A DNA stretch of 64,000 bases, from sequence record OZ035750.1. One strand, written 5' to 3'. Origin of the DNA: Gamaleyavirus NAN33P5. Positions 11,241 through 63,380 of this stretch are shown here, one piece after another. Made by a program: the position numbers and the translations under genes. Every line of letters begins with the position of its first letter. The stretch's first letter is position 1. Under the pieces are notes generated by a model, which was not told where the DNA came from, searched no databases, and saw nothing but the letters and a program-made list of their open reading frames with translations.

Positions 11241-11301
11241 AACTGGCTTACTGTAGAGTAAGTTACCTATATACGATATAAGTTTGAACAGGAAACATGC
11301 T

Positions 11302-14300: not shown

Positions 14301-17300
14301 GTTCCTGAAATCGTTTTCCCTGCCGGAAGAACCTAAGTCCCGTACCATTGGTTCTGAATCTCCTTTGGCTGATATTAAGCAAGCACTGTCTTCTGCTGCT
14401 CGCTTTGAAGCATTCACTCAAAAAGAAAATAACGCTCTCACTAGTGATGTGATGAAACGTTATCAGGACTTGATGGACTTTGGGGAAACTCTGAAGACTA
14501 CTCTGTCTGAACGTCTGGCTAAGTTCCTTGCTAACAAAAATGTTGGTAAACGTTTTGCAGAAGGTACTGAGGCTAATCGTTGGGTAGGTGGCAAACTGCT
14601 GAATATCGTTGAACGAGATGGTGATACCTTTAAGTTCAACGACCAGTTGTTAGAGACTGCTGTACTTGCTGGTCTGCAATGGCGACTGACTGCTACACAG
14701 AATGCTGCCATTAAAGATATGAAAGATGTAGCTGCTATTACTGGCGTAGAAGCATCTCTGTTACCAGAAGGTATTCTGGCTGAGTTTGAGAATGCCCAGA
14801 CTCTGGTAGAAGCTACTAACTCACTGGCTCAGAAGATTGAATCCTACTGGGGTTTGAATCGCAATCCTAATGCACCACTGGGTTATACGAAAGGTATCCC
14901 AATGGCAATGGCTACAGAGATTCTGTCTTCCCTCATTGAGATGGGTGAAGTTAAAGAGTCTATGCTGGATGTGTCTGAGATTGACCCGAACTCCAATAAG
15001 ACTGTTGGTCTGTATACTATTGAGAAGCTGGATGACAATGATGCCATTAATAAATTCCCTACTGCTATTGAGGAAGCTGTCCTATTAGAACCAGAAGAGA
15101 AAATGTACTTTGGTGATGACATTCCTTCCGTGGCCCAGACTCAGTTACGTAATCCTGCTGTTAAAAATACCCCTGAGCAGAAAGCTGCTCTGAAAGCTGA
15201 ACAGGCTACTGAGTTCCGTGTACATATGCCGATGGTTAACTTCTATGAAGCATTAGGCCGTGACAACATTCTGGAACTGATGGGTGCTGGTACTCTTAAT
15301 CCTGACTTACTGAATGAGAACACTGCTAAATCTCTGGAAGGTAAAAACCTGTCCGTGTCTATGGCATATGATTCTCTGTTCGGTGTAATTAATCAGATAC
15401 GGGAACAAGAGAATGGATTGGATACGCCTATCCATTACGGTTACAACATGACCCGTGTAGGTCGTATGCAGATGCTTGGTAAGAACAACCCACAATCCAG
15501 TAAGCTGGTTCGTGAAGCAATTCTGCCGACCTTCTCTACTATCGACTTAAGTAATGAAAACAGCCAAGCGTACTCTGACTTCCAGCTAGGACTGGCTCAG
15601 GCATTGGGCATCAAGGTACATAACATGTCCCGTGAGGCTATGTCTGAAAAGCTGACCAAGGCTCTGGAAGGCAATCTGAAGCCAGCTGTTGATATGATGG
15701 TTGAGTTCGATAAGTCTGGTCACTTACCTGCCGATGCAGTAGATATTCTGAAGACCTCTCTGGGTGGTGACAAATCCTTTGTAGCTCTCATGGCTCTGAT
15801 GGAATATGCCCGTTACCTGAACAGTGATGACCGTGCCAACTTTAATACCCCACTGTACGTTGAAGCTGATGGTGTAACCAACGGCCCAATCAATGCAATG
15901 GTATTAATGACTGGTGGTAAATTCACTCCAGACTGGATTAAGAATACTGCCAAAGGTGGTTTGTTCTTCGGCAAAGCTGGTAAGACTATGAACGAACATC
16001 GTTCACAGGATGATAGTGTTGACCTGTATGAAGCATCTACTAATGGTTTGCAACAAGCACTAAATGAGTTACGTACTACTTACCGTAACAACGTTCCTGT
16101 TATGAGCCAGATGAATCATCTCCAGAAGTTAATGGACCTGTTCATTAAAGACTTTAACCTGAATGAAGACGGTACTCTGGACCTGAAACGTGGTATCGCT
16201 AAAAACCCACTGACCATTACCATCTATGGTTCTGGTGCTCGTGGTATTGCTGGCAAGATGGTTAGTGCAATTACTGACACCATCTACGAACGCCTCAGTG
16301 ACGTTTTGCAAGCACGTGCTGCTGACCCTAGCATTTCCCCAGCTATGGCAATGTTTGGTAAGGAGGCTGCGTCTGAGGCTGATGCTCAGGCTATGCTGGA
16401 TACTTTCCTTACTTCTATGGAAGCACTGACTGGTAATGTTCCAGTTATGCGTAAGGGTGAGTTATCTATTCAACAAGTAGAGGGTGCACTGACTGGTAAG
16501 TTAAACCCTCAGAAATTTACAGTATCCGGTAATGCCCTGAAGAATTTACAGGAGAACATGCTCCACCTGTTCGTTGAACCAATGCGTACTGGTATCCGTA
16601 ATACTGTTGGTGAAGGTCTGATGCACTCTACTGAGAACTTGCAGAAGGCTACCCAGATTCAGTCTCTGGTATTGCAGGATATGTTCCAGCAAGCAGTACA
16701 GGCTAAACTAGCAGAAAAAGAAAAAGACTCAACCTGGAAGAAGGGTGATTTCTTAACGCAGAAAGAACTGAATGAAATCCAGGAATCATTATCCCCGCTG
16801 GCTCCAATGATTGAGACTGGCTCACAGACTTTCTACATTGCTGGTAGTGAGAATACTGATGTTGCTAACCAAGTACTGGCTACCAACTTAGATGACCGTA
16901 TGCGTGTGCCAATGAGTATCTATGCTCCTTCGCAGGCAGGTGTTGCAGGTATTCCGTTTATGACCATTGGTACTGGTGATGGCATGATGATGCAGACCCT
17001 TTCTACTATGAAAGGTGCTCCGAAGAATACCCTGAAAATCTTTGATGGTATGAACATTGGTATCAATGACATCACTGATGCGAGTCGTAAAGCGAATGAG
17101 GCTGTATACACATCCTGGCAGGGGAACCCTATCAAGAATGTTTATGACTCCTACGCTAAGTTCATGAAGAATGTAGATTTCAGCAAACTGTCTGATGAAA
17201 CCAAACAGGCTATCGCTAAATCTGCTCTGGAATATGACCAGCGTGAAGGTGCTACCGATGACCTGTTACGTGCGGGTGCTGAACAGATTGAACGTAACCT

Positions 17301-20300
17301 GCGTAACATTGCCCTGGGTGTAGATATTCGCCACAAAGTAATGGACCAGGTGCAGACCACTGTTGATCAGATGGCTGCTGTGGGTGCTCCTTATGTGAAC
17401 AACGGTAAAATCTCTCTTGAAGGTCTTACTGTAGACCAGCAAGTAGCCAAACTGAACGAACTGTTTGATGCTGAATTAAACAAGCGTCGTGATGCAGTAC
17501 GTGCTGCTAAAGCAGAACCAGTGAAAGAAGTACCGGCAATGGAACAGGTTGGTCGTGTTCTTAAGTCTGGTGTACGTCTGCTGTCCAATACTGCTATTGC
17601 TAAGCTGGCTAAAGAGATGTCTCCTGAACAGCAAGCAGTATTGAAAGAAGTACAGAAATCCCTTGCTGCCAAAGACTATAAGGTTGTTTACGGTACTCCT
17701 GCTCAACTGGATGCTTACGCTATTGAGAAGAACATTACTCGCCCAGCACCAGAAGATATTGAAGCTGCCGAAGCTGGTAATGCATACGGCTGGACTAACT
17801 TTGATGATAAGACCATCTACTTGGTTACCCCTTCCTTAGAGACTCTGGTTCATGAATTAGTACATGCTTCTACTTTTGAATCTGTACTGGCTCATTATGA
17901 GGGTACTCCTAACGAAGCAGTCCAGAATATTGAAGACCTGATGAATCAGTTCCGTACTTTGGATGTTAAGAACGAATCCACGGTAGTACGTGAAGCATAT
18001 GCTGATGCTCTCAATACCATTAATGGTCACTTGTCTAATGGCTTTATTGAACCAGCAATGGCTAAAGCTGCTGCACTGAATGAGTACATGGCATGGGGCT
18101 TAACTAACCGTGAGCTGATTAGTAAGCAGAAGAAGACCACTGCACTGAAAGCTATGGTTCAGTCTGTATATGAAGCAATCAAACGTCTGGTATTCGGTCG
18201 TAAGAAAGCTCCTGCTAATGCAGATGATATGTTCTCAGGCTTATTGTTTAACTCATCTGTAGTTATGCGTGGACAGGCTCCTACGGCTGTTGTATCCAAG
18301 GACACTACCTTGTTCCATAACAAAGCGTATGGTGACAATACCCGTCTGGAAGAGTTAGGACAGACCTTTGATAAGCTGATTACTAACTACATTGGTTCAG
18401 AACCAGTACAGCAAGTAATTCGTAAAGGTAAGTTTTCTGATGCAGTAGTGAATGCAACTAAAGTAACCCGCGATGTTCAGGCTCATGGCTTCACTATGAA
18501 TATGCAGGAACAGCGTCTGTTCACTAATATCGTTGCTGCTTTGGCTACTGAAGCTGCTATTAGTCCTGCTGCTCTTTCTCGTGCACAGGAATATTATGCA
18601 CACGTTACCAAGAACCTGACTGTTGAAGCATTCATGGCTGACCCAGATAGTACTGACCCTGCTGACCGTTACTATGCTCAGCAGAAGTTTGATACCATCA
18701 TGGGTGCTAACAATATTGAGTTTGATGCACAGGGACGTTCTTCCTTACTGCCTACCTTTGTTGGTCTGGCAATGGTAAGCGAAGAAGTACGTAATGTACT
18801 GGCTAACATTCCTGTTATGAAAGCAGATAAGAAATCTGGTAATACCGTTGATGCAATGCTGACTAACATTGGTACTGCTGCAATGTCCAGCCTGAATGCT
18901 CGTGTAGCAGGTGATACCAAAGCTACCAACGTGCAGGACGGTATGGATGCACTGGCTCAGACAATCATGCAGACTAGCCTTAATGCACAGTCATTCTATG
19001 ATTCCGTTGCTACTCCTAGTGGTAATGCTATTGACCGTGCTAACCAGTATCTGGTGGATTCTATCGATGCACTGTCTACTCGTGCTTTAGAAAGTGCTCG
19101 TGAAGTTGCAGCCAATACCAAGAACCCGTTGGTCAAAGGTGCTGCTCATGCTGCACAACTGGTAGCTGCCATTGCTACAGAGAAGAACGGTGCAATCGTG
19201 GCAGAAGGTGTTATGGCTGCAATGAACCAGGGTAAAGTATGGCCACCCTTCCATGACTTAGTTAATGACTTAACCGGTCGTACTAAGAGCAATGCTTCTG
19301 TATACGATTTGATTAAAGCAGTTCGTGCACAGGTACAAGCAGACCGACAGCAATTCCGTGAACGCCTGCCTACCACTATTGCATCTAAGTTCAGCCGTAA
19401 GCTGACTAATGATGAGTGGAAAGCAATGCACACTGGTATGGGTAAAACTGATTTAGCTGTCCTGCGTGACACCATGTCTCTGGCTGAAATCCGTGACCTG
19501 CTGTCTGACCAGAAGATTGTTGACCGTGAAGTGAATAAGCTGGAAGCAGATTTGCAGAAGCAAGCTGGTCGTAACTGGCCTCTTATTAGTCGTAAATCTA
19601 AGCAACTGGCTCAGTACATGATTAACGGTACAGTCGGTAATAACCTGCTGCGTAATGCTACTGCAATCTCCCGTATGCTGGGTGAACGACAGGCTGCTCG
19701 TTCTACTGTAGATGTAGCTCAGCTGGATAAACTGATTACCCTGTATGCACTGGAAGCAATGAATAAGACTGATCGTGAGATGTTATCTTCACTGGCTCAG
19801 ACAGAAGTTGATGGAATGGACTTTGCTACTTCTTATCTGGTTGGTCAGCGTAAAGATGAAATGGCTAAAGCCAAGTCTGACCCACGTGCAACTCTGAACC
19901 AGTACAAAGGGCATATCCCTAGTGAGACTAAACAGGGTGTTAATCTGATTGTTGCTGAAGATAGCCAGTTTGCTGATTTAATTGAGAAGTCTTATGTACG
20001 TCTTGGTACTTATCAAGGTAGCTCTGCCAACCGTGGTCCAGCACGTAGCTATTACTTTGCTCCAGTACAGGCACAGGCTCCCTTCTCACAGGGTATCCTA
20101 CAGAACGTTCGTGATACTGCTGGTGGTGTAGACCTCGGCACAGGATTTACGATGGGTTCAATGGTAGCTGGTCGTATTACTGACAAGCCTTCCGTAGACC
20201 GTATTACTAAAGCACTGGCTCGTGGTGAACGTGGCAATGAACCATTGCTGCCTGTATATGACGATAAAGGTAATGTAGTTGCTTATGAGCAATCCATTGA

Positions 20301-21654
20301 CCCTAACATGCTGAAGCATATTGAAGGTGAGAACCACCTTGCCCGTGCAATTGGTGTATGGCGTGGTCGCCAAGTGGAAGAGGCTAAGGCTCAGCGTTTT
20401 AACGATATGCTGATTGAGAACCTGCACAGCATGTATGAGAACGACATTAAGATGTCTGCCTCTAATAAGTCCCAGTACGTTAACCTTCTTGGTTCTAAAC
20501 TGGACCCAGTAACTGCTGATGCTCTCAAGCTGATGAACAGTGAAACTCGACGGAAAGCAGAAAGCCTGTTTGGTGATGGCGAACTGTGGGTGCGTCGTGA
20601 CATGCTGAATGATGCACTTGGTTATCGTGCAGCTTCTGTTGGTGATGCCTGGTCTGGTAATTCTCGTTGGTCCCCGGAAACCCTGGATACCTTCAAGAAA
20701 GCTATGCTGGGTGTATTTGGCAACCGTGCTTATAAGTACACAATAGGTGGTGAGAACCTGGTTCAGAACTTAGTTAAAGAAGCCAAGACTCTGATTGTAG
20801 TTAAGTCAGTAGTCGTACCTGCTGTTAACTTCTTGGCTAACCTTTACCAGATGGTTGCTCGTGGTGTACCGGTTAAGAACATTGCTAAAAGCATTCCACA
20901 GAAAACTGCTGAGATTAACCAGTACCTGAAATCTCGTTTGCGTCAGGTAGATGCAGAAGCAGAATTACGTGCAGCTACTAACCCGAACCAGATTCGTAAA
21001 CTTAAGGCTGAGATTCAGTCTATCACTGATAGCCATAAGCGTATGAGTATCTGGCCTCTGTTAGAAGCTGGTGAGTTCTCTTCAATTGCAGATGCTGGTA
21101 TCGGTCGTGATGACATTCTGATCACTGAAGGCAAACTTCACGAATACATGGAAAAGCTGGCTGATAAGTTACCTAAGTCAGTACGTACTGCTGGTCGTTA
21201 TGCACTTATCACTAAGGATACTGCTTTGTTCCAGGGTATTCAGAAGACGGTTGAGTACTCTGACTTTATTGCTAAAGCAATCATCTATGATGAATTGACC
21301 CAGCGTAAAGGTAAGACTCGTGAAGAAGCACTAGGACGTGTGACGGAAGAGTTCGTGAACTATGACCGTTTACCGGGTCGCTTCCGTGGGTATATGGAAA
21401 GTGTTGGTTTAATATGGTTCTACAACTTTAAGATTCGTTCTGCAAAAGTTGCAGTGTCCATGATTCGTAACAACCCAGTACATGCAGCAATGGCGATGTT
21501 GGCTCCAACTCCTACCATGTTTGGTAATGTTGGCTTACCTATTCAGGACAACATCTTTAGCATTGCTGCTAAGGGTGGACTGGATTACTCATGGGGCTTC
21601 GGTCAAGGGCTTCGTGCTCACAACCTGAACCCTTGGATGAACTTAGTAAACTAA
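11302..21654 (+). CDS. virion-encapsidated RNA polymerase (giant vRNAP)
   Basis: Single uninterrupted ORF of about 3450 codons (track ORF 11284-21654; first ATG with AGGA RBS at 11302); a protein of this size at the end of the virion module is the hallmark of N4-like phages. Confidence 0.8.
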   Translation: MSTFDRLAGFADSITNAKQVDVSTATSQKQAAQGQSPFQLTPENAYNLQTGRVGNLGIGAFEPGSLQADFTQASPLEIINKYGNEQGLQILNSRANAADVVRQDLSKQRTNAEAFGDTLSGVGLGVANTLGGIAALGTGLVNDNAGASISSGMDWLNEGVHNLQSDALNATRKVVQNQNQISAQKNQKLYEQDIKNGESDLVASLSRIGRDAFDSVANTLDNGMAASDGLSEGVGSLFTGGPLIRGVSALGKVMVGGDKAVKGITLAAGLGSRPAQVALSAGRVAAPAIAIGGMEAGGAYQQTASEIMKMSQQELASKSPVYQQHIADGLSPDEARRQTASETGIIAAGLTAPVAAATGPLVSKFELNPLKVGSLAGAGSNMLRETVEEGIQSGFGQYAQNRAIKENVDAFRDTLKGVGEQAGLGALYGFGSAGVAQAPGATVKAVGASAGPALRTTLAGASLVGKTLAKAASPLTNILVQRGEEVAKRNEQASPVADATVNAAAQEAAAQAEQAQATVQEAVDAMDITPEEKAAATQYAADLTQAMKFDPVELEQANPAIREAVSGSTNRVEAIQKMADLVNTAEDPNVQMEAAIQMYDNIMSMDSFINRDPGALANLEQGSPAAAIVDQFSGLMANVQNTPKVLRAFRAIHSMIQEQAEAGKLKATEEASQAQANNIAMAADVSPEVLDADSVNMVLKHASEGKITLGNRQRAALQSAAALLQGAREFDAKAEELGLRPQDIVSKQIKTDESRSNEGQYSALQHAKRIRSAYNSGNFDLASAYLSDFMKFAQHMQNKVGALNEHLISGNADKNKSVHYQALSPSREWVRSRTGLGVNPYDTKSVKFAQQVALEAKTVADIANALATAYPELSVSHVKVTSLDSRLNKPAAQVVKEFRQGGLDATQSQQTNEPVNQVDESPAPVQEVTTTVQPKAKPVVENKTAPIKETSPKAEEVSTTKTETVDVTLTNEGNIQEVAVTKTEMETVFPVYNNEKTPNQFLKSFSLPEEPKSRTIGSESPLADIKQALSSAARFEAFTQKENNALTSDVMKRYQDLMDFGETLKTTLSERLAKFLANKNVGKRFAEGTEANRWVGGKLLNIVERDGDTFKFNDQLLETAVLAGLQWRLTATQNAAIKDMKDVAAITGVEASLLPEGILAEFENAQTLVEATNSLAQKIESYWGLNRNPNAPLGYTKGIPMAMATEILSSLIEMGEVKESMLDVSEIDPNSNKTVGLYTIEKLDDNDAINKFPTAIEEAVLLEPEEKMYFGDDIPSVAQTQLRNPAVKNTPEQKAALKAEQATEFRVHMPMVNFYEALGRDNILELMGAGTLNPDLLNENTAKSLEGKNLSVSMAYDSLFGVINQIREQENGLDTPIHYGYNMTRVGRMQMLGKNNPQSSKLVREAILPTFSTIDLSNENSQAYSDFQLGLAQALGIKVHNMSREAMSEKLTKALEGNLKPAVDMMVEFDKSGHLPADAVDILKTSLGGDKSFVALMALMEYARYLNSDDRANFNTPLYVEADGVTNGPINAMVLMTGGKFTPDWIKNTAKGGLFFGKAGKTMNEHRSQDDSVDLYEASTNGLQQALNELRTTYRNNVPVMSQMNHLQKLMDLFIKDFNLNEDGTLDLKRGIAKNPLTITIYGSGARGIAGKMVSAITDTIYERLSDVLQARAADPSISPAMAMFGKEAASEADAQAMLDTFLTSMEALTGNVPVMRKGELSIQQVEGALTGKLNPQKFTVSGNALKNLQENMLHLFVEPMRTGIRNTVGEGLMHSTENLQKATQIQSLVLQDMFQQAVQAKLAEKEKDSTWKKGDFLTQKELNEIQESLSPLAPMIETGSQTFYIAGSENTDVANQVLATNLDDRMRVPMSIYAPSQAGVAGIPFMTIGTGDGMMMQTLSTMKGAPKNTLKIFDGMNIGINDITDASRKANEAVYTSWQGNPIKNVYDSYAKFMKNVDFSKLSDETKQAIAKSALEYDQREGATDDLLRAGAEQIERNLRNIALGVDIRHKVMDQVQTTVDQMAAVGAPYVNNGKISLEGLTVDQQVAKLNELFDAELNKRRDAVRAAKAEPVKEVPAMEQVGRVLKSGVRLLSNTAIAKLAKEMSPEQQAVLKEVQKSLAAKDYKVVYGTPAQLDAYAIEKNITRPAPEDIEAAEAGNAYGWTNFDDKTIYLVTPSLETLVHELVHASTFESVLAHYEGTPNEAVQNIEDLMNQFRTLDVKNESTVVREAYADALNTINGHLSNGFIEPAMAKAAALNEYMAWGLTNRELISKQKKTTALKAMVQSVYEAIKRLVFGRKKAPANADDMFSGLLFNSSVVMRGQAPTAVVSKDTTLFHNKAYGDNTRLEELGQTFDKLITNYIGSEPVQQVIRKGKFSDAVVNATKVTRDVQAHGFTMNMQEQRLFTNIVAALATEAAISPAALSRAQEYYAHVTKNLTVEAFMADPDSTDPADRYYAQQKFDTIMGANNIEFDAQGRSSLLPTFVGLAMVSEEVRNVLANIPVMKADKKSGNTVDAMLTNIGTAAMSSLNARVAGDTKATNVQDGMDALAQTIMQTSLNAQSFYDSVATPSGNAIDRANQYLVDSIDALSTRALESAREVAANTKNPLVKGAAHAAQLVAAIATEKNGAIVAEGVMAAMNQGKVWPPFHDLVNDLTGRTKSNASVYDLIKAVRAQVQADRQQFRERLPTTIASKFSRKLTNDEWKAMHTGMGKTDLAVLRDTMSLAEIRDLLSDQKIVDREVNKLEADLQKQAGRNWPLISRKSKQLAQYMINGTVGNNLLRNATAISRMLGERQAARSTVDVAQLDKLITLYALEAMNKTDREMLSSLAQTEVDGMDFATSYLVGQRKDEMAKAKSDPRATLNQYKGHIPSETKQGVNLIVAEDSQFADLIEKSYVRLGTYQGSSANRGPARSYYFAPVQAQAPFSQGILQNVRDTAGGVDLGTGFTMGSMVAGRITDKPSVDRITKALARGERGNEPLLPVYDDKGNVVAYEQSIDPNMLKHIEGENHLARAIGVWRGRQVEEAKAQRFNDMLIENLHSMYENDIKMSASNKSQYVNLLGSKLDPVTADALKLMNSETRRKAESLFGDGELWVRRDMLNDALGYRAASVGDAWSGNSRWSPETLDTFKKAMLGVFGNRAYKYTIGGENLVQNLVKEAKTLIVVKSVVVPAVNFLANLYQMVARGVPVKNIAKSIPQKTAEINQYLKSRLRQVDAEAELRAATNPNQIRKLKAEIQSITDSHKRMSIWPLLEAGEFSSIADAGIGRDDILITEGKLHEYMEKLADKLPKSVRTAGRYALITKDTALFQGIQKTVEYSDFIAKAIIYDELTQRKGKTREEALGRVTEEFVNYDRLPGRFRGYMESVGLIWFYNFKIRSAKVAVSMIRNNPVHAAMAMLAPTPTMFGNVGLPIQDNIFSIAAKGGLDYSWGFGQGLRAHNLNPWMNLVN

Positions 21655-53051: not shown

Positions 53052-54269
53052 TTAGCTAAGGGCATAATCGGTCTCCAGAATGTCTTGCCAGAGGCTGTCA
53101 TCCAGCTTACCAGCAGAGAACTCTTGTCCCAGTACCTGAGAAAGGATGAAGCCCAGCAGGTCACTCTTAGCAATGTCAGACAGAATCTGATTGTACTGAC
53201 GACGCAGGTCATTACCATAGTTAGGATGACAACGGAAGCAGTCATGTACAGTCAGTACAGGGAACGGTTTCTTAGGCATAGTATCAATCATATCGGCTAC
53301 TACCTGACGGTCTACCAATGCAATAGTATTCGGGTCAAGGAAGTCTAGGATAGACAGCGACAGGAATCCTGATTTCTCATAATGATTCCAGATTTCCATA
53401 GTCTTCTCTTGGTTCCCTTCAATAACAGGGTATTCACTTGGCCCGATATTGCACAGTTCGCGTACATAGGCAACCAGTTTAGGGTCGTAGTTACAACGAC
53501 GCAACATCTCACGTACCACCATCCCATCAATAGAGTGGGTGATGTTAGCAGAGAGCATACGAGTCTTCTCTTCAGTACCCTGAACCATACGAGTGATGTC
53601 GAATGGTTTACCTAAGAAGTTAACGGTCTGTACTTCAGGAACCATGACTTTAATAACAGCGTGGTAGTTGTCAGGCAGTACCCATACGTAACGGTTAGCA
53701 TCCGGGTTACCACATTGCAGTAAGAACTTGTTCAGTGCCCAAGGTCCACTAGCAACAGTTTCCATTACATTCTCGAAAGTCTTGAGACGGATACCTTCAC
53801 CGAATACTTCTTTAGGCTTAGCTTCTGAACCGTAGAACGCAGTCATAACTGCCTGCTTGGTGTCACTACGTTTAATACGAGATGCTTCACCAAGGATGTC
53901 CAACATCTTATGGTAGATAACTGTATAAGCATCACGTCGTAATGGTTTACCATTCTCACCCATGTAGTTAACTACGTTACACAGTTCAGCAGCAGAACGG
54001 TCACCAGTCAGGCAAGCCAGTAACTGTAAGCCAGATGATGTAGCATCCAGAGCTACAGCGTAACCGATAGGCTTACCGGCTTTCATATCTTTCCATGCGT
54101 TTACACCAGCATAGAACAGTGCAGATTCTTCAGCTTCATCTACCAGATTGAGCAGGTTAGCTTCGTTCTCCTCGAACCAGTTAATACGTTCATCCCATGT
54201 CTTTTTATCTAAGCCATAGTTGTTAGCGATATCTACTTTCAGGTATTCACGAGCAGTTAGCAGTTGCAT
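53052..54269 (-). CDS. T7-like single-subunit RNA polymerase, catalytic (large) subunit of phage RNAP II
   Basis: 405 aa; C-terminal TVHDCFRCHPNYG resembles T7 RNAP motif C (HDSF); followed upstream by a second small subunit gene as in the N4 RNAP II heterodimer. Confidence 0.55.
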   Translation of the reverse strand: MQLLTAREYLKVDIANNYGLDKKTWDERINWFEENEANLLNLVDEAEESALFYAGVNAWKDMKAGKPIGYAVALDATSSGLQLLACLTGDRSAAELCNVVNYMGENGKPLRRDAYTVIYHKMLDILGEASRIKRSDTKQAVMTAFYGSEAKPKEVFGEGIRLKTFENVMETVASGPWALNKFLLQCGNPDANRYVWVLPDNYHAVIKVMVPEVQTVNFLGKPFDITRMVQGTEEKTRMLSANITHSIDGMVVREMLRRCNYDPKLVAYVRELCNIGPSEYPVIEGNQEKTMEIWNHYEKSGFLSLSILDFLDPNTIALVDRQVVADMIDTMPKKPFPVLTVHDCFRCHPNYGNDLRRQYNQILSDIAKSDLLGFILSQVLGQEFSAGKLDDSLWQDILETDYALS

Positions 54270-54476: not shown

Positions 54477-55295
54477 TTAGTCTTCATTTACTAACTCCTT
54501 ATCAGCGAACTCCAGTACAGCTTTGTTGTAGCTGGTTCCCTGATAGTTGATGTGATAGCCCTGAGCGTAAGTACGCCCACGTTTGTCATATTTGTGACCC
54601 AGTGAGAAGTTATTGCCTTCCTGAGTCACTAACTCCATTACTTCCTTAGCAGTACGGCTGTACTTCTCAAAGGCTTTAACTCGTTTCTCATAGTCCTGAC
54701 GGGTTTCACCTTCTTTGGGTTTATCCATATTAGGACGAGAGTCTTTTACATAGTTGGCAACGTCCCAGTTAATGCAAAGACGTTGATTGTTCATACGGTT
54801 GATGTGGTCAAGGCAGACATCCATCTCATGATGGTTCTTCTTGAGGATAATGCTTCCTTTAGTCTGGTAGTAACCAGTATCCCTGTTAGTTCTGACAGGA
54901 TTGGGAGCACTTACAATAGGTAATGGATACTGGAATGCTTCCAGTTCCATCTGGACATCTTCGCTAATCTCATAGATAACACCGAACTTGTCGATAGTAG
55001 GGTCATAGTTGAAGCAGTCATTCTCTGCCATCTTATACAGACAGTCAGCGATATACTGAGCATCATCTGAGTGACTCATGAGAGAGCCAATCATAGTCTG
55101 AATGTCAGCACGTTTATGTAGGGCAATCTGCACCATTGCATCAATGAGCAGCTTATAATCAATTTCTAAATAGGCAGCGAATGCCTTAAAGTCAATTTCT
55201 TTGGAGTCCTCGAATTCCTTCCTCATGCGAGGCAGTAATTGATTTTTATTGAATAGGACTTCAAGCTGCTTCTGATGCTCAATAGATGAGTACAT
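54477..55295 (-). CDS. putative RNAP II small subunit (N-terminal part of split T7-like RNAP)
   Basis: 272-aa ORF directly upstream of the catalytic subunit gene; synteny-based. Confidence 0.4.
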   Translation of the reverse strand: MYSSIEHQKQLEVLFNKNQLLPRMRKEFEDSKEIDFKAFAAYLEIDYKLLIDAMVQIALHKRADIQTMIGSLMSHSDDAQYIADCLYKMAENDCFNYDPTIDKFGVIYEISEDVQMELEAFQYPLPIVSAPNPVRTNRDTGYYQTKGSIILKKNHHEMDVCLDHINRMNNQRLCINWDVANYVKDSRPNMDKPKEGETRQDYEKRVKAFEKYSRTAKEVMELVTQEGNNFSLGHKYDKRGRTYAQGYHINYQGTSYNKAVLEFADKELVNED

Positions 55296-55318
55296 CGCAT
55301 ATCTCCTAATAAATTAGT

Positions 55319-55573
55319 TTATCTAATAAAACAATTGAATTCATATTTGCCAATACTTTTATCGAAGTAGCAGCTTATAAATATACTCTTTGATACAACC
55401 TCTCTATGGGTAAACATCGATAATCTTACCCCTAGTACACTTACTTCTGAATATTGTAGAGTAGGGCTTGAAACAGTCATACGAATAAGATGTTTTAATA
55501 GATGATAATCTCTCCATTTTAATTGATGTTTTCTTTTTACAATCTCCCCAATGCTTACAGCAGTTGTATCCAT
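55319..55573 (-). CDS. small early-region hypothetical protein (start uncertain)
   Basis: 84-aa ORF; annotated ATG lies only 15 nt from the promoter hairpin, so true start may be internal. Confidence 0.3.
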   Translation of the reverse strand: MDTTAVSIGEIVKRKHQLKWRDYHLLKHLIRMTVSSPTLQYSEVSVLGVRLSMFTHREVVSKSIFISCYFDKSIGKYEFNCFIR

Positions 55574-55580
55574 TTTATAT

Positions 55581-55600
55581 CCCCAAAGCTGCGGAGCAGC
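55581..55600 (-). promoter_or_regulatory. vRNAP-type hairpin promoter candidate (drives leftward transcription)
   Basis: Plus (template) strand CCCCAAAG + GCTGC-GGA-GCAGC: conserved CCAAAG block followed by 5-bp stem, 3-nt purine loop. Confidence 0.5.
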
Positions 55601-55606
55601 TATTAC

Positions 55607-55867
55607 CTAACGCTTAGTCCAAAAGGCAATACGAATATTGTTCTCTTGGCCGAGGTAGTTAATACGTACATATAAACCATTGCCGCTAAATTCATTACTT
55701 TTTTCCCGATAAGGCCATACTAGACTACGCATAGGTATTTTAATGAAACCTGATATGTGACCTAACTTAGTACGACCTTTTAATTCGTTCTGTAATGCAC
55801 AATATATGTCATGCCGTGTTAGTGCTCTGGCTCTAACCTGAGCAGACCATAGTTCTTCATATGTCAT
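55607..55867 (-). CDS. small early hypothetical protein
   Basis: 86-aa ORF. Confidence 0.45.
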   Translation of the reverse strand: MTYEELWSAQVRARALTRHDIYCALQNELKGRTKLGHISGFIKIPMRSLVWPYREKSNEFSGNGLYVRINYLGQENNIRIAFWTKR

Positions 55868-56247
55868 TAGAAGATTCCCCAGTAGATATAGTCATCTCCC
55901 AGAATAGGCTTCCAGGCTTCGTCAAACATGACATTGCCGGTAGCATTGGCAAACATAGGAGCAATTTCTTCATCCTTATAGCCAGCCAAACCACAGCCAA
56001 TGCGAGTTACTTTAAAGTCCCACTCCGGGTGTGATGCTGCGTATAGGATGAAAGCATCTACGAATACTTTTATGTCATCCAGTTTCATGGTCTTTATGTT
56101 CTGGTCTTTGGTTGGGATTGCATAGCTGCAACCATAATGACCAACTCCCATTCCATAACGAGCACCATGCTTCTTATACGCAACTTTGGCTGCACCAGCT
56201 CCGTGACGTCCTGCTAAATTACTACCGAATACGAATATCTCTTTCAT
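55867..56247 (-). CDS. early protein with Gly-rich nucleotide-binding-like motif
   Basis: 126 aa; FVFGSNLAGRHGAGAAKVA glycine-rich loop; fold not assigned. Confidence 0.45.
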   Translation of the reverse strand: MKEIFVFGSNLAGRHGAGAAKVAYKKHGARYGMGVGHYGCSYAIPTKDQNIKTMKLDDIKVFVDAFILYAASHPEWDFKVTRIGCGLAGYKDEEIAPMFANATGNVMFDEAWKPILGDDYIYWGIF

Positions 56248-56444
56248 TTACAAGTCTCTCTATTATAAATATAAGCATCGTGTGTGGTCATATTGTTACA
56301 GTTACGTGTCATTTCTAAATAAGTAAGAGCATACTCATGATCACGCTGTTCTTTCTTGGTTCGGCAGTGACCACACTTCTTATCCCATTGGGATACATAG
56401 CCTTTACCACAATTACACTGTTTATTCATTTGAAAGTACTCCAT
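56244..56444 (-). CDS. small Cys-rich (zinc-ribbon-like) protein
   Basis: 66 aa with CNC...CGHC cysteine pairs. Confidence 0.4.
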   Translation of the reverse strand: MEYFQMNKQCNCGKGYVSQWDKKCGHCRTKKEQRDHEYALTYLEMTRNCNNMTTHDAYIYNRETCK

Positions 56445-56689
56445 GGTATGGATTCTAAGTAAGTAATTTTATAAATAATCTTACTTCTTAATTCTCCTCC
56501 AACATCTTGTACATGGATTAGGTTTAACCTTTGAGCTTGGGTTATAGTAGCTGCAAGAGTTCTCTGCATAATATTTGATATTTCTACAAAAGACTTATTA
56601 GATTCCACTAATAATTTTAAGTTAGTATTATCTAGATTATCCCATTCTTTGGAATGGTTCTTTGGCTTACCCATTAGGATTCTCCACAA
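56426..56689 (-). CDS. small early hypothetical protein
   Basis: 87-aa ORF. Confidence 0.4.
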   Translation of the reverse strand: MWRILMGKPKNHSKEWDNLDNTNLKLLVESNKSFVEISNIMQRTLAATITQAQRLNLIHVQDVGGELRSKIIYKITYLESIPWSTFK

Positions 56690-57047
56690 AGTAGTTATAC
56701 ATAGCCTGTACTAGCTTCTCTTTAATAACCTCACCATGACATGGTTTCGGATAACAGAAGCACTGTAAGGCCAGTCCTTTCTCGTCAATGGCTTTATTAC
56801 CCAGACGATTGAGTTCATCCAGTACAACTGGATTACCTTTATCAATCTGTTCTTGTAGCCAGACTTTATACTTAGCAATTACTTGCTCTCTGGTTCCATG
56901 TTTACCAATGACGAATGGATTTCCAAGAGGTGAACCACGTCCAATATACTCACCAGATTTACCGTGATGTTTATTAACAATAATAATTGGACGTGCAGAT
57001 ACACCCAGCAAAGCATTGGTGTTATCGCCTAATGGGATAGTTTTCAT
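56667..57047 (-). CDS. DUF4326-like early protein
   Basis: RGSPLGNPF ... LQCFCYPKPCHG pattern typical of the DUF4326 family common in phages. Confidence 0.3.
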   Translation of the reverse strand: MKTIPLGDNTNALLGVSARPIIIVNKHHGKSGEYIGRGSPLGNPFVIGKHGTREQVIAKYKVWLQEQIDKGNPVVLDELNRLGNKAIDEKGLALQCFCYPKPCHGEVIKEKLVQAMYNYFVENPNG

Positions 57048-57358
57048 GGTTTAAGTACCTGAAATGCGAATACTGGACGTTTACTACGCCACTGGTTCAT
57101 AGCTAATTCACTAGTTTCAGAACCATCATGTAAGTCATAAATAAATGAGATTACATAGTCTGGTTCTTCCGGGAAGTTCTCTGTAGAGAATGGTAAACCT
57201 GATTCCTTAAGGATAGGAACCAGAGGAGATTCAGCATTACAGTAGAGAGTAAACTCTTCATTGAATGCCTGGCTTGTTTGAGATACATAATCAATATTAC
57301 GCATCATTTTATCTACATCAGTAAATGTGGAATCATGAACCACTAGAATAGTTTTCAT
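57044..57358 (-). CDS. small early hypothetical protein
   Basis: 104-aa ORF. Confidence 0.45.
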   Translation of the reverse strand: MKTILVVHDSTFTDVDKMMRNIDYVSQTSQAFNEEFTLYCNAESPLVPILKESGLPFSTENFPEEPDYVISFIYDLHDGSETSELAMNQWRSKRPVFAFQVLKP

Positions 57359-57546
57359 ACTGGCTCCTTGCCTGTAAATGCTACCACTTTTCCTGACATA
57401 TTCCGTATGGTTACCTGTGCTGAATTAACATCAGCGAATTGCTCTGCAACCCAGTTAAGCATCTCAGGGTCATTATTTAATTGTTTTTTAATCATAGTTT
57501 TACTATCTGCTGTTACTAAAGTGATTTCATAATTTTCAATATTCAT
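57355..57546 (-). CDS. small early hypothetical protein
   Basis: 63-aa ORF. Confidence 0.4.
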   Translation of the reverse strand: MNIENYEITLVTADSKTMIKKQLNNDPEMLNWVAEQFADVNSAQVTIRNMSGKVVAFTGKEPV

Positions 57547-57800
57547 ATTACTTTCTCCAGTGTTAGGTAAACGTTATTATCGACAATACTCAAATCACAG
57601 AAACCAATTTCTTCTTGTCTCCCTGAGGATACCCAGATATTATTTTCTGTTAGCTTAGGTTTCTTAGAGAATCCTATTAGTGAGGTATTAGCACTCTTAT
57701 ACTGTCGAGTATATAGAGCTATATACTTAACCCAGTGAGGCACTTGGATAGTATGCCCCATATATTCTACGTTCTTGCCTGTAGGATATGTAATAATCAT
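57543..57800 (-). CDS. small early hypothetical protein
   Basis: 85-aa ORF. Confidence 0.4.
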   Translation of the reverse strand: MIITYPTGKNVEYMGHTIQVPHWVKYIALYTRQYKSANTSLIGFSKKPKLTENNIWVSSGRQEEIGFCDLSIVDNNVYLTLEKVI

Positions 57801-58018
57801 TTCTGATACCCTTGTATATAGTTAATACGACGAATACGTTGAGTAGATGCCTTAACAGCCATCTGTTGATTTTCTTCTTTGTGCTGATTATTTAATAACT
57901 TATCCCATTCTTCCTGGTTCCGTTGTTTCTGTAATATACGACTACAACGTTTATGATTGGCAACTCCACGCCCTTTCTTACAGACTGGGCATATACCATA
58001 ATCGTTTGAGTACATCAT
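57797..58018 (-). CDS. small Cys-containing (CxxC) early protein
   Basis: 73 aa; ICPVCKKG ... HKRCS. Confidence 0.4.
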   Translation of the reverse strand: MMYSNDYGICPVCKKGRGVANHKRCSRILQKQRNQEEWDKLLNNQHKEENQQMAVKASTQRIRRINYIQGYQK

Positions 58019-58323
58019 TGGCTTAAAGCCTCCATTAATATTTTACGAATAACGTTAACATCAGATTCAGTACCAATTAAACCAACAGGTTTCTTAGTAC
58101 TATCTGTTACAAAGGATGCAATCCTTTCCATCTCTGCTGTAATTAATTTGTCACCACTAATAAGACGATTACGAAGGTAGGCTTCATAAGCTACCTCTAT
58201 ATCCTCTACTGTGGTTCTTTCATTACGAGTGAATGGATTACTTAATGGGAAGGGCAAATGTACCCGTATATTCCTGTCAGCTACTTTAGCTAAGTGAGGA
58301 AGTATGCAAACTATTTCATTCAA
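58015..58323 (-). CDS. small early hypothetical protein
   Basis: 102-aa ORF. Confidence 0.45.
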   Translation of the reverse strand: MNEIVCILPHLAKVADRNIRVHLPFPLSNPFTRNERTTVEDIEVAYEAYLRNRLISGDKLITAEMERIASFVTDSTKKPVGLIGTESDVNVIRKILMEALSQ

Positions 58324-58360
58324 GATTATTTCTCCTATTTAAATACATATCTAACTATTC

Positions 58361-58400
58361 AAAAATAAAAAATAGGAGCCTCCTATTGGAGGACTCCTAG
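58361..58400 (-). terminator. hairpin cluster with U tract (minus strand), probable terminator
   Basis: TAGGA-GCC-TCCTA and GGAG..CTCC hairpins adjacent to AAAAATAAAAAAT on plus strand. Confidence 0.35.
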
Positions 58401-59045
58401 TTCTACTAATGCACATAGGATTAAAGTTATAGACCAGCCCATGTAAATGAATATGGGAAGTTGACTACACAATAATATACGAACCATAAACCATAGCCTA
58501 TGTTCAATCCCTTAGTTAATGCAGTAACATAACCAAATATTGCAAAACCTCTGGCATCGTTATTAGTAACAAAGGTTCAGGTACAGCAATACTATAAAGA
58601 TTATAAAGTACATGATTAATTCCCTAAGATTGGGTGATTGAAGGTAACAATCTTACGTACTGGTTCAGGTGTCTGTTGCTTAGAAGCCAGACGTTCTTTC
58701 ATCTTTTGTACGTCAGCTTTGGTTCCCATGATTAATGACTTACGCATGTTTAGTACTCCACATAAAGTTAAAAGGTTTGTTATTACGTACAATTCTTACA
58801 GCCATTTGATAGCCATTTAGTTGTACAACACCATAATGTCTCTTCTGGTTACCAGTATGGTTACGACGGAAGATACATTCTTCAATAGCAGCATTGATAT
58901 CAGTGAACACCATCGGCTTCTTTCATAGATTGGATACATTTATCAGCATGTTCACGAGCACGTTTAAGGTCATACTCGTTCACGGTTCCTAATATGGATT
59001 CAATCCATTGTTCATAGAAGTACAACCACATAGCTGAATAGTTCA

Positions 59046-59267
59046 TCATTGGTTCCTCTTTGCAAACTCTTTTGCTTGTTGCTTGTAGTACTGAGTCATT
59101 GCCTTCTTGTGTTTAACACTGGCAATGAGACACTCGATAGTAACGAATGGCAGCTTAGCAATAAGCAACCACTTATGACGAAATTTCCAGCCTAGAAAGT
59201 AGAAAATTACACAGAAAGCGATGAAGTCTAACATGGTTAATTCCTCTTTTAAGATAGCTCTAATCAT
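59046..59267 (-). CDS. small membrane protein
   Basis: 73 aa, hydrophobic segment FIAFCVIFYFLGW. Confidence 0.4.
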   Translation of the reverse strand: MIRAILKEELTMLDFIAFCVIFYFLGWKFRHKWLLIAKLPFVTIECLIASVKHKKAMTQYYKQQAKEFAKRNQ

Positions 59268-59758
59268 TTACCGTGACGTTCTGTATATCCATGATTCTTA
59301 ATAAAATCTTTAAGTATATTCTCACGGTAGCTTATGGCTAATTGCTTGGCAACTTCATAGCCATTCTTTTGTACACTGAAGCGTTTTTTACGCTGCTTAC
59401 CTGTAATAGGGTCTATCCATTGAGTACACCAATACTCAATGCCACTATCAATTCTATTGGTTACACCTGTAACACCTGAATTGTTGTTAGAGTAAATACT
59501 CTTATTCTTCATGTTTACTGCTTTTGGTATGCAACGTAGGTTAACTAACCTACAGTCCCAACGGATACCATTTACATGGTCTATCTCATACCCTTCAGGT
59601 ATAGCACCGTTGATTTGCTCCCAAATCCATACATGTAAAAGTACGGTTTTACCATCACGTTTTACATATATGTATCCATTGGTATGTGAGTCTTCAGCTG
59701 TATAACATTTAGCCAATTCTTGGGCAGATTTTAGCCAGTATCCTCTAGGTTTTCTCAT
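59264..59758 (-). CDS. HNH homing endonuclease (free-standing) with AP2-like domain
   Basis: HVWIWEQINGAIPEGYEIDHVNGIRWDCRLVNL HNH core; C-terminal SGVTGVTNRIDSGIEYWCTQW AP2-like; 164 aa. Confidence 0.7.
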   Translation of the reverse strand: MRKPRGYWLKSAQELAKCYTAEDSHTNGYIYVKRDGKTVLLHVWIWEQINGAIPEGYEIDHVNGIRWDCRLVNLRCIPKAVNMKNKSIYSNNNSGVTGVTNRIDSGIEYWCTQWIDPITGKQRKKRFSVQKNGYEVAKQLAISYRENILKDFIKNHGYTERHGK

Positions 59759-59823
59759 AGATACCTCTTAGTCTCTCTTCGTCGATTTACCCTATAAAAG
59801 TAGGAATAGCATTTAGTAAGTAG

Positions 59824-59852
59824 AAAATAAAAGGACTCCCCGAAGGGAGTCC
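59824..59852 (-). terminator. rho-independent terminator (minus strand)
   Basis: GGACTCCC-TTCG-GGGAGTCC on minus strand followed by TTTTATTTTC. Confidence 0.6.
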
Positions 59853-59861
59853 TGTGGTTGA

Positions 59862-60245
59862 TTAGAAAGTCAGTTTACGAGCATATTTATTCTCGTCTGC
59901 TGGGATGTCAGCAGCTTCTGCTTTCACACGACGAAGTTGAACTTGCAGGTTAATGATACCTTCTTCACCTGGTTCCAGGTTCTGAGCATATTCGATTAAC
60001 TGTTCCAGCAAATCGTTCTGTGCACAACGCATAGCACGGAAGTCAGCATTGCTGCTGTTAGTAGGCAGTGGTTCCTGAGTATCCAGTGGAATACCAGTAG
60101 GCAGAGAGATGAACTTCTCTTCTTCAGAACCTTCATTAGCAACATAACCAATGTTCAGCCAGAACTGAGCTTTAGGCTTAGCAGTTTTAGTTTCAGTGGT
60201 AGCAGCAGCGTTAGATTGACCGAAAGTGAATTTTTGAATAGACAT
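59862..60245 (-). CDS. early hypothetical protein
   Basis: ORF 59862-60344; start placed at internal ATG 60245 (MSIQKF) which has a GGAGAG RBS. Confidence 0.45.
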
Positions 60246-60348
60246 TTTGTACTCTCCAGATTGATAAATGTTTGATTTATGGGTTTGTCCGTCGGTGACT
60301 AAACCCAAGAAAAGACTTAAGATTTCAATGATTAGTGGATGCATAAAT

Positions 60349-60370
60349 CATCCAAAAGCTGCAGAGCAGC
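60349..60370 (-). promoter_or_regulatory. vRNAP-type hairpin promoter candidate (drives leftward transcription)
   Basis: Plus strand CATCCAAAAG + GCTGC-AGA-GCAGC. Confidence 0.5.
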
Positions 60371-60378
60371 CCTAGTTT

Positions 60379-60606
60379 TTACTGACAGAAATCGTCCATC
60401 TTTCTGAATGAACGACGGAGCTTTCTTACTTGCTTACGAGTAGGTTTTACAGGGAAACTGTAATCCATAACCAAAGGCATCTTGGTTTCTTCGCATGATT
60501 CATAGAACCACAATTGCCATTCTGCTTTCGCAGGGAATGCACGTTGCTTACCAAATACTAGTTGCTGAGCACCACCAACGTAAATGAGGTCTGTATTGAT
60601 TTTCAT
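60379..60606 (-). CDS. small early hypothetical protein
   Basis: 75-aa ORF; AGGAG RBS 7 nt before ATG 60606; 34 nt downstream of promoter hairpin. Confidence 0.5.
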   Translation of the reverse strand: MKINTDLIYVGGAQQLVFGKQRAFPAKAEWQLWFYESCEETKMPLVMDYSFPVKPTRKQVRKLRRSFRKMDDFCQ

Positions 60607-60631
60607 TAGTAAACTCCTGAGTTAAAGGGAT

Positions 60632-60652
60632 ATCCAATAGATGCGGAGCATC
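60632..60652 (-). promoter_or_regulatory. vRNAP-type hairpin promoter candidate (drives leftward transcription)
   Basis: Plus strand ATCCAATAG + GATGC-GGA-GCATC. Confidence 0.5.
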
Positions 60653-60659
60653 TTGGTTT

Positions 60660-60827
60660 TTAAGACAAGCGTTTAAGCAGCTCTTCTCTAGCAGATTTAT
60701 ACTCTTCCTCAATTCCCGGTCGATCTTCCGGGTCTTGAGCACCAATCATTTCACGAGCACGAACAGCTTTTTCAAAGTTTTCCAAAGCTTCTTGCGGTGA
60801 TTTAGATTTGCAATCTGTCAGGGACAT
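60660..60827 (-). CDS. small early hypothetical protein
   Basis: ORF 60660-60860; start placed at ATG 60827 (MSLTD) with AGGAG RBS. Confidence 0.4.
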   Translation of the reverse strand: MSLTDCKSKSPQEALENFEKAVRAREMIGAQDPEDRPGIEEEYKSAREELLKRLS

Positions 60828-60848
60828 TTTACTTCTCCTAAAGTAGAT

Positions 60849-60861
60849 GATGCTTCGCATC
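60849..60861. promoter_or_regulatory. hairpin with inverse loop (GATGC-TTC-GCATC on plus strand)
   Basis: Same stem as promoter at 60640-60652 but loop is TTC on plus strand (GAA on minus) and no CCAAAAG block. Confidence 0.25.
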
Positions 60862-60938
60862 TTCTGCGAATAACTATCTACTTAGTTAAACTATCTAATC
60901 TTTATAAAAGGAGACTCCGAAGAGCCTCCTATATTGAC

Positions 60939-61262
60939 TTAGTCTTTAGTCAGGATGTCGATTACTTTTGAATATTCTGCGTTATAGATACGAGCGTTTT
61001 CTGAATCTTTGCAGAATTCTTCGATACTTTTCTTACGCATAGTCTCGTTCATAGCTGTTTCTTCAGCTAATTTGTTTACGAATGTATGCATTTCTAATTT
61101 AGTACGGATGGCTTGTTTCTCTGCCATAGTACTTACATATGAATTAAGCATACCTACTGCTTTAGTAGCTGTGCCGAATGTATCTGCAACAGTAGTAGCA
61201 GCAGAGTTAACAGTACCAAGTAAAGTTCCTGCGGTCATACGTACAGTAGCGGTAGTAGTCAT
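60939..61262 (-). CDS. early hypothetical protein
   Basis: ORF 60939-61448; start placed at ATG 61262 (MTTTATV, GGAG RBS) because a promoter hairpin lies inside the longer frame. Confidence 0.4.
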   Translation of the reverse strand: MTTTATVRMTAGTLLGTVNSAATTVADTFGTATKAVGMLNSYVSTMAEKQAIRTKLEMHTFVNKLAEETAMNETMRKKSIEEFCKDSENARIYNAEYSKVIDILTKD

Positions 61263-61298
61263 GATGATAGCTCCAATAGTTGATGATAGGACGACATG

Positions 61299-61318
61299 TC
61301 CATAACATGCGGAGCATG
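61299..61318 (-). promoter_or_regulatory. vRNAP-type hairpin promoter candidate (drives leftward transcription)
   Basis: Plus strand TCCATAA + CATGC-GGA-GCATG. Confidence 0.5.
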
Positions 61319-61478
61319 TGTAACGTGTAAGGTGGGGTAGGGTAGTGGCTACAGGGTCAACATACCGGGGGGGGATGGTTGAGTGTAAGGGTGTAGCCCC
61401 AGCCACACCACTGTAGTCATACATAGCTATCAACATTTTGGTATGCAAAAATATTATAACTATCTCACTTATAAGCAG

Positions 61479-61817: not shown

Positions 61818-62085
61818 ACTTTAGTACCTGCTTGAGAAGACTATCCATGTAATAACAGTATGCCTCGGAGGATTCATCATTAATTGGTAAGCCAACGAAG
61901 CCAAGGGTGTATATGCAGAAGTGATTAAGTTCATGAACCAATGTGATAGGGTTGCTATCCTGTACATAGATAAGTACCGAACCATCGGGGAGTAGTGTAG
62001 TAACACCTTTACTTTGCTCCCCTGGTTCAATGCCTTTAGTTTTCTTGTACTTCTAACTGTACCGGATAGGGAGATGTGTTTAGTT

Positions 62086-62684: not shown

Positions 62685-62687
62685 GGC

Positions 62688-63366: not shown

Positions 63367-63380
63367 AATTGCATACCTCC

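Follow-up and report, generated by a model that had tools for sequence, protein, structure and literature searches.

The early promoters of phage N4 and the virion RNA polymerase (vRNAP) that reads them are reportedly dealt with by Haynes and Rothman-Denes (1985), Glucksmann (1992), Dai and Rothman-Denes (1998) and Gleghorn (2008). The subject here is a set of four small DNA hairpins of the same type in the early region of Gamaleyavirus NAN33P5; the window, to which all positions refer unless another genome is named, is the whole 64,000-nucleotide (nt) stretch of record OZ035750.1 that was analysed. In N4 itself there are three early promoters recognised by vRNAP, P1, P2 and P3, which are conserved from -17 to +1 and have a GC-rich heptamer centred at -11 with flanking inverted repeats (PMC4496689). 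The non-conserved bases of the hairpin stem need only pair, and in the 3-nt loop -10G and -12A form a sheared pair while W129 of the enzyme is stacked on -11G. K114 and R119 contact -10G and -11G, and D901 and R904 contact -9C/-10G and -8G, with -10G being contacted by both K114 and D901; what is recognised specifically is -11A/G, -10G, -8G and +1C (PMC4496689). The G at the 5′ side of the loop is needed for hairpin extrusion, and the sheared G:A pair explains how extrusion can occur at physiological supercoiling (PMC4496689). The DNA changes from double- to single-stranded between -5 and -4, the As at the four positions from -1 to -4 act as a ruler such that the start is 8 nt downstream of -8, and initiation involves GTP pairing with +1 and +2, the initiating nucleoside triphosphate (NTP) in the solved structures being stacked on the purine at -1 (PMC4496689).

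Four hairpins on the early template strand

The four sites of the window are very probably early promoters for the injected vRNAP of this N4-like phage, with lower confidence attaching to the activity of site 2, and the observations on which this reading is founded are sequence, potential for structure formation, synteny, covariation and conserved contact residues. On the + strand the sites read CCCCAAAGCTGCGGAGCAGC (site 1, 55581-55600), CATCCAAAAGCTGCAGAGCAGC (site 2, 60349-60370), ATCCAATAGATGCGGAGCATC (site 3, 60632-60652) and TCCATAACATGCGGAGCATG (site 4, 61299-61318), as the original prediction, which was made from these letters, had described them. Their stems are perfect. Site 2 has a stem of 5 bp and an AGA loop, and the other three have stems of 6 bp and a GGA loop, the loop being of 3 nt throughout. 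The resemblance to N4 promoter architecture that had been proposed is also apparent on closer comparison, with the loop centred at -11, A at -12, C at -9, G at -8, an A/T ruler (-1 to -4) and C at both +1 and +2. The C(-9):G(-13) loop-closing pair and the G at -8 are common to all four, as is the position of the two Cs, 8 nt downstream of -8, and by N4 numbering the predicted RNAs of all four would begin with GG. The 4-nt rulers are AAAA, AATA, ATAA and CAAA, with CAAA at site 1 and AAAA at site 2. Of the published N4 determinants, then, only the -10 of site 2 and the -1 of site 1 deviate. One element of the original motif does have to be dropped, namely its variable spacing: when the sites are aligned by their hairpins, site 1 is seen to differ by substitutions (CCCCAAA as against TCCAAAA) and the spacing is constant.

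From about 22 kb to 64 kb every gene is on the - strand, and so it is the + strand, on which all four hairpins were found, that is the template for the early genes, just as had been claimed. When both strands of the window were scanned blind for perfect 5-bp stems enclosing a loop of three purines, 34 hairpins came up, and the CC..A block accompanies only the four sites above. When the motif is defined as CC at +1/+2 plus a GC-RRA-GC heptamer (R being a purine) within a 5-bp stem, there are again 4 sites on the two strands together, whereas 1000 dinucleotide-preserving shuffles gave 0.011 on average and never more than 1; for the pattern CCAWWAVNTGCRGAGCA there are 3 matches where 0.00 are expected. 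A genome-wide search of this sort had been suggested as a check, with occurrence of the motif in late genes or on the non-template strand counting against the promoters. Within the 64-kb window neither occurs, all four motif sites being in the early region and on the template strand. Nearest-neighbour DNA folding of the single strand gives, at each site, the expected 5-6-bp stem and 3-nt loop.

Several other hairpins were considered. Those with a GC-RRA-GC core near 11400, 37412 and 63475 were rejected, as they are without +1C/+2C and/or -8G, or are on the wrong strand inside genes. The last of these, CCTAC-GGA-GTAGG at 63475-63487, is without -8G and +1C and, judged by these positions, is not a canonical vRNAP promoter; it is located in a GC-rich and apparently non-coding stretch, 63390-63600, which has no match in Rfam, and it is identical, with the same flanks, in the related loci L006 and L008. 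The same stretch has a strong terminator-like stem on the - strand at 63393-63418. A different type of candidate is at 60849-60861, where GATGC-TTC-GCATC on the + strand is GATGC-GAA-GCATC on the - strand, with A at -1 and C where +1 would be. The N4 core determinants are there on the opposite strand, and an RNA started from it would be antisense to gp1 and its terminator. This hairpin is kept in Klebsiella phage vB_Kpl_K57alpha1.2 (hereafter K57alpha1.2), has one stem mismatch in phage G7C and is absent elsewhere; from this distribution it is probably not functional, and it was not counted.

Counterparts in relatives and the polymerase that would read them

There are 84 phage records that match the early region (55300-61500), and every one is from the N4-like Enquatrovirinae. 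The top match is K57alpha1.2, with 97.5% identity, and for Bp4, PhAPEC7, SP5M, G7C and others the identity is 86-94%. Annotated relatives are classified as Schitoviridae, Gamaleyavirus, and the window is a Gamaleyavirus genome, G7C-like, from the N4-like Schitoviridae. The feature table of the K57alpha1.2 record (OY979416.1, locus L024) does not match its own sequence and looks offset or rotated: the homologue of the early region is labelled as vRNAP, tRNAs, single-stranded DNA-binding protein (SSB), primase and others, and the coding sequences of the record are almost all given as partial or pseudo. Only the DNA of that record was used here and its annotation was set aside.

Applying the identical scan rule to N4 (NC_008720) gave three hairpins, at 102, 571 and 4560, to which the labels P1, P2 and P3 were assigned in this analysis (Table 1). 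Sites 4, 2 and 1 are the positional orthologues of N4 P1, P2 and P3, respectively, and are nearly identical to them in sequence. Site 3 is without an N4 counterpart but is found in SP5M, K57alpha1.2, L006 and others. The first position of the N4 and G7C records aligns at about 61405 of the window, which therefore continues across the junction of the genome ends, the assembly being circularly permuted or repeat-collapsed. With the left terminus at about 61405, site 4 is at about 87-105 bp from it, a distance similar to that of P1 in N4. The small - strand genes at 61479-63858 are the right end of virion DNA.

For wider comparison, a search of IMG/VR with the small subunit of RNAPII (gp15) gave 20 loci with 31-99% protein identity, and these together with N4, SP5M, G7C and K57alpha1.2 made up a set of 24 genomes and 388 kb. 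Where the left end is complete, there are 3-4 such hairpins per genome, always on the early template strand and in syntenic places: ahead of gp1, of one or two small extra open reading frames (ORFs), of gp2, and of gp15 or the small ORF that comes before it. To guard against circularity, the set was also searched with a core, CC-N4-N3-GC-RRA-GC-N3, in which pairing of the outer stem is not required. On the template strand there were 66 matches, and in 63 of them all three outer pairs are complementary, for which the chance level is 1 in 64; on the opposite strand none of the 6 matches is fully paired. Alignment of the 46 distinct sequences shows that 98.3% of cells pair, compared to 14-56% when the register is slid, with a covariation score of 0.545 (0.097 in shuffles). 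Double-sided changes occur at all three outer pairs and amount to 49 cells versus 13.6 in shuffles, while the -8G/-14C and -9C/-13G pairs, the 3′ A of the loop and the CC at +1/+2 are invariant. This combination of fixed contact bases with an outer stem that is free to vary as long as it pairs is precisely the logic published for N4.

G7C (L002/L005) has, at about 503-515 and inside its terminal repeat, an extra hairpin, AACGC-GGA-GCGTT, whose flank, CGAAAC, has no CC where +1 would be. It may represent a promoter that has degenerated or shifted.

The polymerase that would be expected to recognise the four sites of the window is a homologue of N4 gp50, 66% identical to it overall and 71% identical in the polymerase domain, mini-vRNAP. 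In its central part it matches solved structures of N4 vRNAP (PDB chains) with E=0. In mini-vRNAP numbering the hairpin-reading residues K114, R119, W129, D901 and R904 are identical to those of N4, as are the backbone-binding K849 and K850 and the residues involved with the initiating NTP and catalysis, K437, R440, E557, D559 and D951. The sole difference among the residues compared is in the intercalating hairpin, where K267 is replaced by N. With its contact residues conserved, the enzyme is expected to have N4-like specificity.

By homology with N4, initiation at the four sites, and its dependence on gyrase and SSB, can be envisaged in the following way. The left genome end would enter the cell, and host gyrase would then supercoil the DNA, so that the inverted repeats could be extruded as small hairpins, with the non-template arm being melted by host SSB. 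The vRNAP would bind the template hairpin of the + strand, with its 5-6-bp stem and 3-nt G/A-G-A loop centred at -11, reading -11G, -10G, -9C and -8G, and the RNA would start as GG, templated by the pair of Cs located 8 nt downstream from -8. Transcription would proceed leftward, on the - strand, from the four predicted +1 positions (Table 1). From site 4 it would cover gp1 and stop at the terminator that follows, from site 3 it would cover a 75-amino acid (aa) ORF and then read through past site 2, from site 2 it would cover gp2 and stop at the terminator beyond it, and from site 1 it would cover an 84-aa ORF and then gp15 and gp16, the genes for RNAPII.

The deviating sites and other readings of the hairpins

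A number of observations weigh against the identification of all four hairpins as vRNAP promoters. Their folding energies are modest, -4.6 to -5.7 kcal/mol, with that of site 4 being ordinary compared to shuffles (z = -1.4), and so the case for promoters is based on conservation and not on thermodynamics. At site 1 the -1 position is C rather than a purine, though the force of this is tempered by the presence of T or C at -1 of several predicted orthologous sites; from the sequence a shift of the site 1 start by one nucleotide in either direction may also be envisaged. There is also the A at -10 of site 2, in its AGA loop; the -10G of N4 is recognised by vRNAP and is required for hairpin extrusion and stability (PMC4496689). 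At the P2 position AGA is present only in the window genome and K57alpha1.2, with GGA in every other relative examined, and the exact site 2 variant is without a match in IMG/VR.

Site 2 could accordingly be a decaying or very weak P2, with only the other three sites being active and gp2 being expressed mainly by read-through from site 3, and this has to be taken seriously even though the odds are somewhat against it. The two residues that contact -10G, K114 and D901, are unchanged in the window vRNAP and no compensating change in the enzyme is visible. In addition, extra-stable DNA mini-hairpins of the types d(GCGNAGC) and d(GCGAAGC) are described in PMC13037366, and while the GCGGAGC of sites 1, 3 and 4 fits GCGNAGC as it is given there, the GCAGAGC of site 2 falls outside it. 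With site 3 just 282 nt upstream of site 2, and with no terminator between them, selection on site 2 would be relaxed. Against decay, the rest of site 2 is canonical, with +1C/+2C, an AAAA ruler, -8G, -9C, -11G and -12A. The AGA variant is also stable in two genomes that are 97.5% identical, and the distant locus L019 has an AGA loop at a P1-like site, which suggests that such a loop is tolerable. All told, the sequence comparisons make it probable that site 2 is functional but weaker, and that of the four it is the weakest, with site 3 as its backup.

The hairpins could alternatively act in RNA, as processing or stability elements of read-through early mRNAs instead of as DNA promoters. In transcripts from an upstream promoter the complement of the hairpin, GCUGC-UCC-GCAGC, would stand immediately ahead of the following start codon, and site 2 is within the site 3 transcription unit. 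What is conserved, however, are the very features that N4 vRNAP reads on template DNA, i.e. the GGA loop, -8G and +1C/+2C at the fixed 8-nt distance, and the orthologous N4 sites are experimentally mapped promoters (PMC4496689). Moreover, site 4 is so close to the genome end, about 100 bp, that there is nothing upstream from which an RNA hairpin could be transcribed. A role in RNA in place of promoter function is very unlikely. Even more improbable is that the hairpins are intrinsic terminators of + strand transcription or chance palindromes. There are T-rich runs after sites 2 and 3 on the + strand, and both were flagged by a terminator-pattern scan, but sites 1 and 4 have no T-run, and with the genes of the ~22-64 kb portion all being on the - strand there is no + strand gene upstream of any site and so nothing to terminate. 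Chance is excluded by the shuffles and by the covariation across genomes.

Early transcription units and comparison with known systems

The features of the early region, with the vRNAP gene and the N4 hairpins, are collected in Table 1.

Table 1. Predicted promoter hairpins, their N4 counterparts, and associated genes and terminators
Feature	Position	Strand	Description
Site 1	55581..55601	+	AGCTGC-GGA-GCAGCT at 55587-55601; loop 55593-55595; predicted +1 C55583, C at -1; hairpin-aligned: flank TATATCCCCAAA, stem GCTGC, loop GGA, stem GCAGC
Site 2	60351..60370	+	GCTGC-AGA-GCAGC at 60358-60370; loop 60363-60365; predicted +1 C60353; hairpin-aligned: flank AATCATCCAAAA, stem GCTGC, loop AGA, stem GCAGC
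Site 3	60633..60653	+	AGATGC-GGA-GCATCT at 60639-60653; loop 60645-60647; predicted +1 C60635; hairpin-aligned: flank GGATATCCAATA, stem GATGC, loop GGA, stem GCATC
Site 4	61299..61319	+	ACATGC-GGA-GCATGT at 61305-61319; loop 61311-61313; predicted +1 C61301; hairpin-aligned: flank ACATGTCCATAA, stem CATGC, loop GGA, stem GCATG
N4 hairpin, P1	102 (N4)		Upstream of gp1; ACATGTCCATAA-GTTGC-GAA-GCAAC; counterpart of site 4, flank ACATGTCCATAA in common
N4 hairpin, P2	571 (N4)		Upstream of gp2; CATCCAAAA-GAAGC-GGA-GCTTC; counterpart of site 2, CATCCAAAA in common
N4 hairpin, P3	4560 (N4)		Upstream of gp15; CCAAAA-GCTGC-GGA-GCAGC; counterpart of site 1, stem identical
gp1 homologue	60939..61262	-	107 aa; PHROG 5020; first gene after site 4
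Early terminator after gp1	60880..60909	-	RNA GGAGGCUC-UUCG-GAGUCUCC then UUUUAUAAAG
Early ORF, 75 aa	60379..60606	-	Pfam DUF7279; PHROG 2375; downstream of site 3
gp2 homologue	59862..60344	-	Long form, 160 aa; downstream of site 2
Terminator after gp2	59822..59853	-	Intrinsic type, strong; 9-bp stem then T-run
84-aa ORF (orf84)	55319..55573	-	Between site 1 and gp15
RNAPII small subunit	54477..55295	-	N4 gp15 homologue; PHROG 2166
RNAPII large subunit	53052..54269	-	N4 gp16 homologue
Virion RNA polymerase	11284..21654	+	3456 aa; N4 gp50 homologue; enzyme expected to read the four hairpins

The leader from site 4 to gp1 is 39 nt. The ORF listed at 60939..61448 is over-extended, the real gp1 start being the ATG at 61262 that follows a GGAG Shine-Dalgarno sequence. 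The terminator after gp1 is nearly base-for-base conserved to N4 (N4 ~493-520) and was missed by a consensus terminator scan because of a G:U pair. From site 3 the leader to the 75-aa ORF, which has an AGGAG Shine-Dalgarno sequence, is 29 nt, and the terminator scan revealed none between that ORF and site 2 or gp2.

Leaders are much shorter at the other two sites. That of gp2, from site 2, is the 9-nt GGAUGAUUU and that of the 84-aa ORF, from site 1, is 10 nt, with gp15 and gp16 following the latter. The closeness of these two ORF starts, 60344 and 55573, to the hairpins had been taken to mean that either the mRNAs are nearly leaderless or the true starts are internal. The former option is the better supported, both ORFs being conserved as proteins; the comparison favours short leaders of 9-10 nt at sites 2 and 1 over internal starts only. 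In 20 related genomes the gp2 start is ATG (GTG in one) and is 8-11 nt after the predicted transcription start site (TSS), or 4 nt in the most distant, L019. The N-terminal extension of gp2, which comprises 30-44 codons up to an internal Met, keeps its frame, with all indels being multiples of three, and encodes a conserved hydrophobic peptide, MHP[LI][LI][IYF]E[IL]L[ST][FL][CF]LG[LVF][LV]TD. On these two grounds the extension is very probably translated. There is also an internal start at 60246 (GGAGAGUACAAAAUG), with a conserved strong Shine-Dalgarno sequence and ATG, which would give a short form of 127 aa. Annotation of the gp2 start varies accordingly, with the long form being given for N4 and G7C and the short form for SP5M and in the PHROG profile, and two gp2 isoforms are possible. 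N4 gp2 is a single-stranded DNA-binding cofactor of RNAPII and is reported to be membrane-associated (PMC4496689); the hydrophobic N-terminal peptide of the long form could be the basis of that association.

The 84-aa ORF is conserved as a protein (AVSIxEI..KRKH..KW) in six of the loci, SP5M (L001), L006, L008, L011, L017 and L024, where its start is always 10-11 nt after the predicted TSS of the P3-type promoter; in SP5M it is unannotated. N4 and G7C are without it, and in these two the P3-type promoter precedes gp15 by about 30 nt. Neither PHROG nor Pfam has a match to the 84-aa ORF, and the searches of those two databases gave no function for gp1, gp2, orf55, orf75 (DUF7279 only) or orf84.

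The sole purine-rich element in the gp2 and orf84 leaders is the 5′ GGA/GGG, which the promoter imposes and which is 4-8 nt upstream of the AUG, and it is tempting to speculate that it acts as a minimal Shine-Dalgarno sequence. A fuller version of this idea, tentative and on balance rather doubtful, is that the 5′-terminal GGA/GGG is the only ribosome-binding element of these leaders, with both long and short gp2 isoforms being made, and that the promoter would thereby set not only transcription but also translation dependent on the 5′ end.

Elsewhere in the window, two adjoining tRNA genes at 23361-23520 on the - strand comprise one for tRNA-Ile (anticodon AAT) and one whose anticodon loop is odd and was not assignable by ARAGORN. 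Rfam at its gathering threshold and ARAGORN gave only these two tRNAs, near 23.4 kb, for the window as a whole and nothing at the four sites.

For annotation, the outcome is a set of Gamaleyavirus early transcription units with TSSs predicted to the single nucleotide, the true gp1 start, an unannotated but conserved 84-aa gene and the physical end within a permuted assembly. The AGA loop at the P2 position, a natural -10A variant, offers a ready test of how strict the need for -10G is. In all the close relatives examined the gp2 and orf84 starts are 8-11 nt after the predicted TSS (4 nt for gp2 in the distant L019), which makes the way in which these early mRNAs are translated a matter of interest. 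Neither the variant nor the short leaders change the known picture of N4-type early transcription.

Prediction of hairpin promoters is routine for N4-like genomes, and the element described here is of a known kind in one more genome. Three such promoters have been predicted in the CB1-like phages of Pectobacterium (PMC6027278). In LUZ7 the early hairpin promoters have been mapped experimentally, and they resemble those of the window in being vRNAP-dependent, in their stem (4 bp or more), in their conserved loop of 3 nt and in their start with G (PMC9163698). LUZ7, however, belongs to another subfamily and has another host, has nine early TSSs, and its TSSs are 13-14 nt from the hairpin centre whereas the distance is 11 in N4 and here. 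Closer in layout is the N4-like Klebsiella phage KP8, with four predicted hairpin promoters, P1-P4 (PMC6950046, Table 1). As here, they are at the left end, where they precede ORF1, a small additional ORF and the homologues of gp2 and gp15, and their template-strand form is TCCATAG-GTTGC-GGA-GCAAC and similar (PMC6950046). KP8 is nevertheless of another genus, with about 47% nucleotide identity to G7C, and its sites are computational predictions only. N4 has three sites and the window four, the extra one being site 3, before the DUF7279 ORF. Other differences from N4 are the -10A of site 2 and the -1C of site 1, the 84-aa ORF that is between the P3-type promoter and gp15, and the replacement of K267 by N in vRNAP. 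Common to N4 and the window are the hairpin on the template strand, its stem of 5-7 bp and its 3-nt loop with -11 at the centre, the -12A, -9C, -8G, A/T ruler and +1C/+2C, and the location of promoters before gp1, gp2 and gp15 at the left genome end.

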